7,398 nucleotides of DNA, taken from positions 1 to 7,398 of the forward strand of contig NBVN01000018.1 in assembly GCA_003056265.1 (NCBI GenBank), in the 5' to 3' direction. The DNA is from Zestosphaera tikiterensis. Lineage in GTDB: Archaea; Thermoproteota; Thermoprotei_A; Sulfolobales; NBVN01. Shown here piece after piece: positions 1,236-3,320 of the stretch (positions are counted from its first letter, which is position 1; every line of letters begins with the position of its first letter). The translations under genes were made by a program, and so were the position numbers. The notes below the pieces were generated by a model. The model ran no database searches and was not told where the DNA came from. It worked only from the letters and a program-made list of their open reading frames with translations.

Positions 1236-1483
1236 GAGCCCCGCCGTTTTACGGTGGATTAGAAGTTTTATAGATTCTCCTGATCTTTAGGTCGGTAGGG
1301 GAGGTACGTCATTGAGGCTGACGGCTCCCCGCCATGAATAGCGGAGGTTCTCTCCCTAGGGCTTGCATTACTTCTCTGAAGCCCCTCACCGGGAGTGCAT
1401 CACCCATCAGTTCCCGCCGTCAGCTCCGGGAAGGTGTGGGACTCATCCCAAGCCACGGTTACCCACACCCAACACCAAAACAT
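1236..1483 (-). ncRNA. Unclassified structured-RNA candidate R1 (GC-rich island, paralog of R2)
   Basis: This is a GC-rich block in an AT-rich spacer with no ORF.
- On the minus strand it starts GTTTTGGTGTTGGG, about 22-25 nt downstream of a TATA-like box (1505-1497).
- The 5' end GUUUUGGUG (1481-1473) is complementary to CACC-gu-AAAAC near the 3' end (1256-1246).
- Internal hairpins: ggtgtggg 1433-1440 / cccacacc 1462-1469; ggggag 1298-1303 / ctcccc 1325-1330, enclosing cgtca 1307-1311 / tgacg 1319-1323; gggctt/aagccc around 1359-1386.
- It shares the 5' motif and a CCUCCGC block with R2.
- The strand call rests on G.U wobbles and TATA spacing and remains uncertain. Confidence 0.45.
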
Positions 1484-1496
1484 TAAACAAGAAAAA

Positions 1497-1505
1497 CTTA
1501 AAAAC
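1497..1505 (-). promoter_or_regulatory. TATA-like box upstream of R1 (minus strand gtttttaag)
   Basis: The minus strand reads GTTTTTAAG, followed about 16-24 nt later by the conserved GTTTTGG start of R1. R2 shows the same geometry. Confidence 0.35.
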
Positions 1506-1641
1506 ATTCACCCCACCTTAAAAGGTGAAGCCTCAAGCATATGGTGATGTAGAGTCTTAGGGGAGGATGGAATGAGTTCGCTCATCCAACTAAAGATTAA
1601 TGAACATTTAATACATATCTTAAAACCTTACTAAAGATGCG

Positions 1642-1653
1642 CTAAATATATTA
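1642..1653 (+). promoter_or_regulatory. Candidate TATA box for the TasA-like gene
   Basis: The sequence ctaaatatatta lies about 35-45 nt upstream of the ATG at 1686. This would give a short leader containing aggatg. Confidence 0.3.
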
Positions 1654-1685
1654 ACTAAACAACCCACCCTAACTAGGATGTAAAT

Positions 1686-2840
1686 ATGTATAATCAAAAA
1701 GCCGTATTTGGGATGGTATTAGCGTTAATGATTATGGCGTCAGCGCTAGCTATGTGGAATGAAACCCTAAGGGTTAATGTTTCAGTATCTATGGGTGACG
1801 TTGATTGGAAATTCCAAAAGGTAGAATGGCTTGATGCATGTGACTCAACCAGCGGTAAAGACTGGAATGTAATTCCACCTTCAAACGAGCCGAAGCAGGT
1901 GGATAAGGACGTTGGATGTACTTCAGTTTCGATATCTGAAGATGGACACACACTAGACATTACTTTAAGTAATGTCTACCCATGGTATTATACGGAAGTC
2001 AAAGCATCTATCGTTAACACCGGAACTATACCGATAAAAGTCTCGAAGCTAACAATAGATGGGGAGGAATACCCCCCTACAAGTAGGGAGATATATCTTG
2101 ACATAAACAACGACCACCAACCAGATCTATTGATAATGTGGGAAGGCCCCGAATACTGCGAGCAAATACATCCAGGGCAATCCACAGACCTAGTGATTAA
2201 GGTGTTAGTACTTCAAAACGCACCTCAAGGATTAACAACATCAATCAGCGTGGGCTTAACAGCAATACAGTGGAACGAATTAACGTGCCCACCACCAACC
2301 ACCACACCACCAACATACAAACCAACCATAAACAACGGTAACTTCACAGGATGCAGTCTTAATGGTTGGAGTACAGGTTTTGATAACAAATGGAAGGAGA
2401 AGGATAAAGATAAAGATAAAACAAAATGGGAAGCTGTTAAGGATGATAAGAATGATCCCGCTCTAGATGGTTGTGCCGCTAAATTTGATGGTGAGCTTGA
2501 AGGTAAGGATACTGTTAATGCGTTTGCTTGGCTTTATCAATACTTTACGGTTAGTGTGAGCACGTCGTTTAACGTAGTAATAAGGTATAAAGTTACTCAA
2601 GTAGCTGATCATGGTGCTAATGTAACTCTGAGGTTTGGCGTGTGGGATGGTAGTAACTGGGTGTGTATGGGTAGTCAAACAATAGTTTATGGTACGGGAC
2701 CTAGTGGTGGCATACCCTATCGCGAGTATAGCGTATCATGTAGTTTAACGCCGGGAAGCTATCAGTTAAGGCTTGAAATAGAGAATGATAAGTCCAACAA
2801 CTTCGTCATGCTTGTAGATTACTTCACAATCGATTGTTAA
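1686..2840 (+). CDS. Secreted TasA/camelysin-like (peptidase M73 superfamily fold) fibre/pilin-type domain fused through a Pro/Thr linker to a C-terminal jelly-roll (CBM/DUF642-like) domain
   Basis: 384-aa ORF.
- The N-terminal signal peptide (K-containing n-region, hydrophobic VFGMVLALMIMASALA) is followed by A-M-W-N-E-T. This matches the A-x-[FW]-x-[DE]-T start seen in SipW-type/TasA-like precursors (TasA: TWAAFND).
- The motif LSNVYPW...VKASIVNTGTIPIKV resembles TasA LSNLKPGD...FENNGSLAIK.
- The first domain ends LTAIQWNE, compared with TasA FEATQWNG.
- The linker is CPPPTTTPPTYKPT.
- The second domain starts INNGNFTG.SLNGWSTG and ends FVMLVDYFTIDC. Both are typical first and last strands of CBM-like jelly rolls.
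- There are nine Cys residues. Confidence 0.8.
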   Translation: MYNQKAVFGMVLALMIMASALAMWNETLRVNVSVSMGDVDWKFQKVEWLDACDSTSGKDWNVIPPSNEPKQVDKDVGCTSVSISEDGHTLDITLSNVYPWYYTEVKASIVNTGTIPIKVSKLTIDGEEYPPTSREIYLDINNDHQPDLLIMWEGPEYCEQIHPGQSTDLVIKVLVLQNAPQGLTTSISVGLTAIQWNELTCPPPTTTPPTYKPTINNGNFTGCSLNGWSTGFDNKWKEKDKDKDKTKWEAVKDDKNDPALDGCAAKFDGELEGKDTVNAFAWLYQYFTVSVSTSFNVVIRYKVTQVADHGANVTLRFGVWDGSNWVCMGSQTIVYGTGPSGGIPYREYSVSCSLTPGSYQLRLEIENDKSNNFVMLVDYFTIDC

Positions 2841-2855
2841 TCAAATTAAATAATG

Positions 2856-2860
2856 TTTTT
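2856..2860 (+). terminator. T5 tract 16 nt after the TasA-like stop codon (archaeal oligo-T terminator candidate)
   Basis: The sequence taatgtttttcatt follows the stop codon at 2838-2840. Archaeal RNA polymerase terminates at oligo-T runs. Confidence 0.25.
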
Positions 2861-3071
2861 CATTCATTACTATAATTAACTTACTCATTTAACTATTCTG
2901 TTCATGAATATTTGCGCATTTAAGAACGCTTAAAGCGTTGCTGTATTTCCTTTATCACCTGAGTATGCTTTATCATAGATAAGAAAGACAAATTTGCCTA
3001 TGTTGCGAACGTATGCTTTCATTACCTAATAGTTGCTTACTAACGTAGAACTTAAGTTTAGTGAAGGTTTA

Positions 3072-3297
3072 AAGGGTGGGGTTCGGGTCTGAACGATTTC
3101 CCTAATCACTTTCTTCATCCCTTCATGTTTTGTTCCTCCGTTCCGTCTGGTTTCATCCTTCACTGCGGAGGCTCTTAGGGGCGACCCAGGCACCCCTGCA
3201 CACGCTTACCCTCTTTTTCCCTTCCATCCCTTGATACTTACTCAGGGATCCACCTACCCTACAGGTGGATAAACCCCCTCATCAACCCCAAAACAAT
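3072..3297 (-). ncRNA. Unclassified structured-RNA candidate R2 (GC-rich island, paralog of R1)
   Basis: This is a GC-rich block in an AT-rich spacer with no ORF.
- The minus strand starts (AT)TGTTTTGGGGTTGATGAGG, about 24 nt downstream of a strong TATA box (3320-3307).
- The 5' UGGGGUU (3290-3284) is perfectly complementary to AACCCCA at the 3' end (3083-3077).
- Hairpins: atccacct 3248-3255 / aggtggat 3263-3270, extended by GGGG/CCCU; GGGGUG/CGCCCC (3196-3178), which has a U.G wobble only on the minus strand; CCUCCG/CGGAGG (3171-3166 / 3140-3135).
- It contains UGAUGA...CUGA and several GGAUGA motifs, which are K-turn-like. Confidence 0.45.
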
Positions 3298-3306
3298 ATT
3301 CACTTC

Positions 3307-3320
3307 TAAAATATATAAAC
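3307..3320 (-). promoter_or_regulatory. Strong TATA box upstream of R2 (minus strand gtttatatatttta)
   Basis: The minus strand reads TTTATATATTTTA. The conserved GTTTTGG of R2 begins about 25 nt downstream of the start of the box. Confidence 0.4.

Follow-up and report, generated by a model that had tools for sequence, protein, structure and literature searches.

The stretch of DNA analyzed here (the window) is a 7,398-nt contig from a metagenome-assembled genome (MAG) of Zestosphaera tikiterensis, a member of the Desulfurococcaceae. The elements in question are two GC-rich islands: R1 (positions 1236 to 1483), which lies between an MFS transporter gene and a gene for a secreted protein, and R2 (positions 3072 to 3297), which lies between the secreted-protein gene and an FAH-family hydrolase gene. 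The initial annotation had presented the two islands as a candidate new noncoding RNA family. That proposal failed, since the R2 core is a tnpB 3' end with a right-end scaffold and R1 has an end module of the HgcC type. R1 and R2 are very probably two protein-less IS200/IS605 derivatives (PATEs, or solo right ends) of different subfamilies, each of which has kept the scaffold of a TnpB omega RNA, an RNA of a known kind. Since there is no tnpB in the window, both are read as solo, PATE-like units. This reading as a solo right end with an omega RNA is close to certain for R2 and probable for R1.

Omega RNA also goes by the name of reRNA; its first description, from archaea, called it sotRNA, and the Rfam family HgcC stands for one of its subfamilies. 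The scaffold of an intact element overlaps the final tnpB codons and reaches the right end, and the next 16 to 20 nt of flanking DNA serve as the guide. TnpB is an RNA-guided nuclease (PMC10055086 and work cited there). Its omega RNA derives from the 3' end of tnpB together with the right end, with the guide taken from the flank; cutting of the empty donor site favors re-copying of the element; and the protein-less PATEs often encode omega RNAs, which are necessarily used in trans (PMC10055086). An 8-bp stem capped by a UUCA tetraloop, termed the "RE-like tetraloop," is carried by the RNAs that lie at the 3' ends of IS1341-type tnpB genes and is also found in HgcC and in PATE-derived intergenic RNAs; HgcC itself was still of unknown function in the 2015 sotRNA paper that reports this motif (PMC4615843).

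R2 and its tnpB-linked relatives

In the analysis of R2, the window was compared with two sequences of the JGI metagenome 3300005800. One, L126, is a near-identical strain that spans window positions 1384 to 3632 with spacers about 100% identical. The other, L171, is a different locus that carries a full-length gene-less R2 copy behind an unrelated gene (nhmmer E = 1.5e-53). The window, L126, and L171 align from GTAGCCGTAGC (3394) to GACCCGAACCC (3079), including both TATA-like boxes, and the flanks are unrelated. This common sequence defines a repeated unit of about 315 nt, wider than the R2 first annotated. The unit is short, protein-less, and dispersed, with sharp boundaries, as expected of a PATE, and it occurs with different flanks in the window and L126 on one side and in L171 on the other. 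The initial annotation had itself stated that dispersed copies would point to a miniature inverted-repeat transposable element rather than an RNA gene, and such copies were found for R2. The features of R2 are as follows.

3079 to 3394, minus strand: R2 unit, predicted gene-less PATE-like derivative of a tnpB-only (IS1341-type) IS200/IS605 element, about 315 nt, from the alignment of the window, L126, and L171
3371 to 3380, minus strand: second TATA-like box, TTCTATATAA, close to the unit's 5' boundary, kept in L171
3311 to 3320, minus strand: TATA-like box, kept in L171; the R2 5' motif follows about 25 nt downstream
3248 to 3270, minus strand: predicted 8-bp hairpin ATCCACCT-GTAGGGT-AGGTGGAT in the 5' part
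3209 to 3240, minus strand: variable linker from the 5' part to the scaffold, with 12 differences between the window and L126 against spacers about 100% identical
3079 to 3208, minus strand: predicted omega-RNA (sotRNA) scaffold, 130 nt, tnpB tail codons plus right end, from homology to the tnpB-linked locus L170
3026 to 3193, minus strand: 55-amino-acid (aa) open reading frame (ORF), a likely relic of the TnpB C-terminal tail and not an independent gene, from phmmer and the domains of P0100
3059 to 3078, minus strand: flank 3' of the scaffold, CACCCTTTAAACCTTCACTA, at the guide position, placed by the stop of homology

The initial annotation had stated that neither island contains an ORF, but R2 has the 55-aa minus-strand ORF and R1 has three overlapping plus-strand ORFs of 50 to 52 aa; its description of the islands as noncoding, RNA-type sequence was sound. 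Since the two substitutions within the core of the R2 ORF between the window and L126 are synonymous third-position changes, we searched the ORF with phmmer against a representative set of 1.84 billion proteins. It matched 9 short ORFs of 40 to 75 aa at 67 to 89% identity, with the common core (A)YAG(E/V)PGSPL(R/S)ASAVKDETRRSGGTK(H/D)EGMKKVI; the translations of the related ORFs fall in nine 50%-identity clusters. In P0099, the core comes after CRKCGFIADRDIIDAMN, and in P0100, a cluster mate of P0095, it directly follows a complete TnpB TNB domain (Pfam PF07282, 5.8e-19, 68.4 bits with a cutoff of 26.3; NCBIfam guided_TnpB, 4.4e-18, profile positions 317 to 388 of 389). Because the core is the TnpB tail in P0100 and P0099, the 55-aa ORF, the C terminus of which is frameshifted in L126, is best read as a relic of the TnpB C-terminal tail. 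It is this part of tnpB that the omega RNA overlaps (PMC4615843, PMC10055086).

The same relationship was seen at the DNA level. In L170 (JGI 3300014911), a decayed tnpB 3' end (...YRKLQEAIVSKAIEHNVPI...CRKCGFIADRDIIDAMN..., CRKCGF...DRD...) runs into the R2 scaffold, and the 139 nt that follow and overlap it (4087 to 4225) align to R2 (nhmmer E = 8.6e-22). These alignments show that, by sequence, the R2 core is homologous to a tnpB 3' end plus a right end. The stretch shared with this tnpB-linked copy, at 130 nt, is as long as a TnpB omega-RNA scaffold. The window, L171, and L170 stop being homologous at ...GACCC(G/A)AACCC, after which the flanks are locus specific; the R2 flank at the guide position had no second match with up to 3 mismatches in the sequences compared. 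Four FAH orthologues (L166 to L169, 71 to 80% nucleotide identity) have neither R2 nor any GC island upstream, which fits R2 as an insertion.

A covariance model of the R2 scaffold, built from four sequences, scored 164 bits on the window, 149 bits on L171, and 128 bits on L170, which are training sequences that match by construction; it found nothing beyond them in 75 kb of archaeal sequence. In these four sequences the scaffold has two compensatory pairs, and 95.1% of cells are paired, compared with 35 to 51% when the partners are slid; the covariation score was equalled in 26 of 500 shuffles. Outside the scaffold, the window is closer to L171 than L126 is in the linker (3209 to 3240), where the changes disrupt the hairpin predicted there from the single sequence. 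The linker pattern suggests exchange among copies of a multicopy family, and such exchange would also account for the way in which the 5' motif changed in parallel in L126. In the hairpin at 3248 to 3270, one change from G.U to A-U in L126 stays paired and one pair is broken in L171.

Other searches added little. A six-frame pseudo-protein search gave no match, but it also missed R2 relatives known by other searches. The plasmid and phage collections gave no DNA match and at most one weak tnpB match among the proteins, and an IMG/VR scan with an R2-core pattern gave one match, attributable to chance.

R1 and the HgcC-type end module

R1 was then compared with the Rfam families. It matched HgcC (RF00062) over model positions 1 to 130, with the CUGAC-loop hairpin, CCCGGUGA, GAACC, the tetraloop hairpin, and GAG..GUCAG all present, and of the three weak Rfam matches in the R1 region, the best two were to HgcC. 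The UUYA-tetraloop terminal hairpin followed by GAGGAGGUCAG, which marks HgcC, is also present in R1, where 1350 to 1318 reads GAACC-CUCCGCUA-UUCA-UGGCGGGG-AGCC-GUCAG. This 8-bp UUCA hairpin appeared in none of 5,000 shuffles of R1. R2 gave no match to HgcC at E ≤ 10. The element part of the R1 island extends from about 1298 to 1481, and its features are as follows.

1305 to 1433, minus strand: R1 core, weak match co-linear with the whole HgcC model, from cmscan
1318 to 1350, minus strand: predicted right-end module with GAACC, an 8-bp stem with a UUCA tetraloop (1327 to 1346), and GAGCC-GTCAG, from the pattern and shuffles
1298 to 1317, minus strand: flank 3' of the module, CCTCAATGACGTACCTCCCC, at the guide position, placed by the divergence past GTCAG in relatives
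1470 to 1505, minus strand: TATA-like box (1497 to 1505) and 5' motif TGTTTTGGTGTTG (1470 to 1482), the same in L126 but for one extra T in the T-run
1510 to 1531, minus strand: second tetraloop hairpin, 9 bp, GCTTCACCT-TTTA-AGGTGGGGT, directly upstream of the TATA-like box, from a hairpin scan

We then searched IMG/VR with a pattern of the positions common to R1 and the HgcC consensus, which ended at GAG and left GTCAG outside. The pattern found 7 loci, compared with about 0.1 estimated by chance, and all 7 go on, like R1, with 2 to 3 nt and GTCAG before they diverge. A relaxed pattern found 12 loci. A TnpB ORF ends 4 to 56 nt before the module in at least five distinct loci, L173, L175, L181, L182, and L183. 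Near-identical copies of L173 are L174, L176, L177, and L179, and L184 has the same module and flank as L183. Three of these TnpB ORFs were checked with Pfam and had OrfB_IS605 and/or TNB domains, and tnpA adjoins in L173. Across 6 loci, the R1-type tetraloop stem varies with its pairing kept.

The HgcC model was also scored on these loci. It gave 52.6 bits, above the gathering score of 50, at the tnpB 3' end of L183 (2236 to 2411), 33.7 bits at the TnpB-linked position in L182 (3400 to 3505), and 25.9 to 30.1 bits on three copies in L178 (189 to 273, 4053 to 4200, and 5250 to 5340). Since the 52.6-bit match covers about 130 nt at the end of a TnpB gene together with its right end, HgcC (RF00062) looks like one subfamily of TnpB omega RNAs. 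By these sequence matches, the end module in R1 is that of the HgcC-type omega-RNA class, and R1 falls below the curated threshold for membership of HgcC. The likeness of R1 to a tnpB 3' end plus right end covers the last 33 nt, that is, the end module only. L178, an AT-rich IMG/VR contig of 42% GC, holds its three HgcC-like copies within 6.9 kb, a clustering like that of the solo units in the window.

The window has two UUYA-tetraloop hairpins of at least 8 bp, both on the minus strand, while shuffles averaged 0.09 and none of 300 had two at once. The arms of the second hairpin (1510 to 1531) resemble those of the R1 right-end hairpin, and a weak match to the HgcC 3' end was found at 1491 to 1530 (12.2 bits). 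The second hairpin may mark the left end of an R1 PATE-like unit, or it may be what is left of a further right end. The idea of a third decayed scaffold at 1506 to 1625 was rejected, as that region has no significant similarity to R1 or R2 and shares the tetraloop hairpin only. A 27-aa leaderless ORF at the start of R1 was rejected as well, being frameshifted in L126. The R1 reading frames matched no Pfam or NCBIfam family, and the R1 flank at the guide position had no other match in the sequences compared.

Kinship, folding, and alternative readings

What the initial annotation had seen in the sequence was partly confirmed. The islands are GC rich, at 55.6% (R1) and 51.8% (R2) compared with 27 to 38% in the flanking spacers and 42.5% in the window. 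On the minus strand, they share the 5' motif TGTTTTGG(T/G)GTTG (1482 to 1470 in R1, 3295 to 3283 in R2) and a second block around CCTCCGC (element positions 137 and 127). TATA-like boxes lie on the minus strand at 1505 to 1497 for R1 and 3320 to 3311 for R2, so each island has a plausible promoter of its own; both R2 boxes are kept in the independent copy L171. Upstream of R2 is an AT-rich segment and then the divergent FAH gene, and upstream of R1 is a spacer. The minus strand was also rightly called as the sense strand. Three substitutions in robust hairpins between the window and L126 stay paired through G.U on the minus strand only, a weak hint of strand that is not significant alone (n = 3). 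Most L126 substitutions break pairs in the structures predicted from single sequences.

However, the proposed kinship of R1 and R2 was not supported. Their best local alignment is a 13-mer alone, with a score equalled in 57 of 500 shuffles, and with the promoter region added the score was equalled in 143 of 2,000 shuffles. Past the motifs, the R1-R2 alignment score was 22, compared with 14.3 ± 5.8 (maximum, 31) for unrelated metagenome sequences with both motifs. A metagenome scan for TGTTTTGGNGTTG...CCTCCGC gave 120 matches, all chance and none homologous, and the R2-scaffold covariance model found no match in R1. By these comparisons, homology between R1 and R2 is not shown, and the two are not detectably related to each other. 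Two further ideas were also rejected: att sites or a tandem duplication around the secreted-protein gene, where just a 13-mer is in common, and a diversity-generating retroelement, for which a template/variable repeat pair and a reverse transcriptase are both lacking.

The structural claims of the initial annotation fared no better. A GGUG/CACC to GGGG/CCCC difference between the islands had been taken as a compensatory change. In L126 and L171, the R2-type 5' end has GGTG, with the 3' partners AACCCCA and AACCCTA. Both R1 and R2 begin TGTTTTTGGTGTTG in L126, so that the GGGG/CCCC pair there becomes GGUG with an unchanged CCCC. The helices proposed to close each element have their 3' partners near 1240 to 1250 and 3072 to 3080, beyond the right ends at 1318 (R1) and 3079 (R2), and thus join element sequence to flanking DNA; the R2 partner also differs in L171. 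The suggested K-turn sites or C/D boxes have noncanonical spacing, and the C/D-type Rfam scores on the islands are at chance level (sR28, E = 8.4; snoZ163, E = 2.7; SNORD57, E = 6.8). The advised Rfam check found no family significant on R1 or R2 themselves. Rfam on the entire window gave no match at E ≤ 10, and a tRNA scan of the window found no tRNA.

Several points weigh against reading the islands as omega-RNA solo right ends. Neither tnpB nor tnpA is among the ORFs of the 7.4-kb window, and any TnpB acting in trans on R1 and R2 would be encoded elsewhere. The hairpins, which the initial annotation had called strong, do not lower the folding energy beyond chance: the minimum free energies of the minus strand are like those of dinucleotide shuffles (z = -0.20 for R1 and -0.55 for R2), and the plus strand gave z = -0.45 (R1) and -1.94 (R2). 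For R2, no matching pair of left-end and right-end hairpins was found, and its two copies did not yield a target-adjacent motif (TAM). For R1, no second copy was found, and its match to HgcC reached 11.9 bits (E = 2.1) against the gathering score of 50. The IMG/VR pattern was partly derived from R1, which leaves as independent support only GTCAG, the TnpB linkage, and the excess over chance.

Some of these points bear on a different fate for the same elements. R1 and R2 might share the IS200/IS605 right-end origin and yet be inert, decaying relics, with TATA-like boxes that are AT-rich spacer or left-over tnpB promoters. We regard this as plausible, though less likely than not. The lack of tnpB and tnpA nearby, the chance-level folding energies, the fast-changing patch and indels in R2 between near-identical strains, and the plain decay of L170, which belongs to the same family, all speak for it. 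On the other hand, a second locus preserves the entire R2 unit at about 88% identity, 5' part and both TATA-like boxes included, the scaffold is conserved far better than the linker, and the substitutions in the robust stems keep their pairing on the sense strand. For R1, another question is whether it derives from an insertion sequence at all, since a right-end-like hairpin could arise by chance or convergence in other GC-rich sequence. The low HgcC score, the lack of a recovered R1 homologue, and the failure of the R2 covariance model on R1 are in keeping with such an origin. It is nevertheless unlikely, because the module match extends over about 33 nt with GTCAG at the right spacing though outside the first search, two UUYA-tetraloop hairpins fall on one strand as in none of the 300 shuffles, and R1 is 1.7 kb from a proven IS relic that has the same orientation.

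The two remaining alternatives are hard to reconcile with the tnpB-linked relatives. A new family of stable structured RNAs apart from mobile elements, perhaps with L7Ae or K-turns, would agree with the GC islands and promoter-like boxes, which are real, and with the lack of a significant Rfam family on R1 and R2 themselves. Such a family is scarcely credible given the tnpB tail and right end in the R2 core, the HgcC/TnpB end module in R1, the chance-level similarity of the two islands, and C/D-type matches at E = 2.7 to 8.4. R2 could also be the mRNA of a small basic 55-aa protein (3026 to 3193, minus strand) with a structured leader, as its frame is open in the window and in L126, the two core substitutions are synonymous, and nine similar short ORFs exist in public data. 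However, the similar stretch occurs at varied places in ORFs of varied lengths and starts and is the TnpB tail in P0099 and P0100, the C terminus is frameshifted in L126, no Pfam or NCBIfam family was matched, and the same substitutions also preserve RNA pairs, which makes a small-protein gene extremely improbable.

Read as solo right ends, R1 and R2 can be compared with three known systems. TnpB omega RNA (PMC4615843, PMC10055086) likewise runs in the sense direction over the last tnpB codons and the right end, with a scaffold of about 130 nt followed by a flank guide; the R2 scaffold aligns to such a locus (L170), the R2 relic ORF corresponds to the TnpB tail, and the R1 end module is found directly behind tnpB in IMG/VR loci. 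Here, in contrast, no tnpB lies upstream of R1 or R2 in the window, and the scaffold is preceded by an AT-rich TATA-box segment and about 85 nt of unrelated 5' sequence. The PATEs of Haloquadratum, VNG_R0052 of H. salinarum, sRK48 and sRK52 of P. abyssi, and the PATE-like elements of G. stearothermophilus are protein-less IS200/IS605 derivatives that keep the ends and often an omega RNA. They are intergenic, multicopy, and transcribed in the cases studied, and the R2 unit resembles them in its sharp boundaries and second copy. Unlike in PATEs, similar left and right hairpins can be proposed for R1 only (1510 to 1531 and 1327 to 1346), and the host here is a Desulfurococcaceae MAG. HgcC, too, was found as a GC island in an AT-rich hyperthermophile, and R1 is co-linear with its whole model, sharing the CUGAC-loop hairpin, GAACC, the UUYA-tetraloop hairpin, and GAG..GUCAG. 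R1 differs in lacking one model hairpin and in scoring 11.9 bits against a threshold of 50, and R2 matches no part of the model.

In the mechanism that we propose, tnpB would have been lost from both units while the scaffold part was retained. Minus-strand transcription from the TATA-like box of each unit would yield an RNA of about 180 to 240 nt, and a TnpB made by some full-length element at another genomic site could bind this RNA and trim it. As in other IS605 elements, the RNA-protein complex would then cleave the empty donor site, after which recombination would bring the element back. Candidate TnpB targets would be DNA with CACCCTTTAAACCTTC or CCTCAATGACGTACCT next to candidate TAMs. 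The islands would be GC rich because the scaffold combines structured RNA and a former coding tail in an organism with AT-rich spacers.

A stronger version, in which the solo units are working parts, seems quite improbable. The units would be either promoter-driven, tnpB-less guide-RNA genes that recruit a TnpB made elsewhere or the two ends of a composite peel-and-paste unit. Such a composite would reach from the R2 left end at 3394 to the R1 right end at 1318, with the secreted-protein gene, whose C-terminal half is exchanged between strains, as its cargo. If either were true, a surface-protein cassette would owe its turnover in some way to omega-RNA elements.

The analysis removes a false new RNA family and shows that transposon guide-RNA scaffolds turn up in scans of AT-rich hyperthermophiles for GC islands. 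Should the units be expressed and loaded in trans, they would be natural cases of guide RNA and nuclease coming from separate loci. The Desulfurococcaceae now also offer examples of probable gene-less IS200/IS605 derivatives, with an omega-RNA scaffold behind promoter-like boxes of their own. It also gives direct evidence that the HgcC model recognizes tnpB 3' ends, which may aid RNA annotation in archaeal genomes and metagenomes.

Neighboring genes and differences between strains

The genes around R1 and R2, taken from the ORF list, are as follows.

5 to 1198, plus strand: MFS transporter
1686 or 1713 to 2840, plus strand: secreted protein, initially described as TasA-like
3438 to 4361, plus strand: FAH-family hydrolase
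4687 to 5327, minus strand: PIN/CcdA pair
5466 to 6518, minus strand: split ATPase_2 gene

The window and L126 differ in three regions: the C-terminal half of the secreted-protein gene (2300 to 2750), a 48-nt indel (2963 to 3010), and the R2 patch (3197 to 3240). The N-terminal half of the secreted-protein gene is identical in the two strains, and the C-terminal half past a proline/threonine linker is mostly replaced, with about 100 differences per 200 nt at 2351 to 2550. From the sequence, the change at 2300 to 2750 looks like a cassette-like exchange of a surface domain. The 48-nt stretch lies in the spacer downstream of this gene and is missing in L126.

For the secreted protein described as TasA-like (1686 to 2840), Pfam gave no TasA or Peptidase_M73 match and a subthreshold Wzt_C match only. 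L127 has a 76% homologue of the protein (317 to 2761), followed by a gene with a faint Peptidase_S26 (signal-peptidase) match, and no R elements are close by. A genome scan with the secreted protein gave no match; a scan with FAH gave a best match of 55% identity with no R-like element near it.

At the other end of the window, the archaeal ATPase_2 gene (5466 to 6518) is broken into two ORFs. An 85-nt fragment of its middle part is repeated 1.4 kb away at 75% identity (4384 to 4468 compared with 5826 to 5910). By sequence, the split gene and its fragment beside the PIN/CcdA toxin-antitoxin pair are signs of gene decay and duplication in the region.

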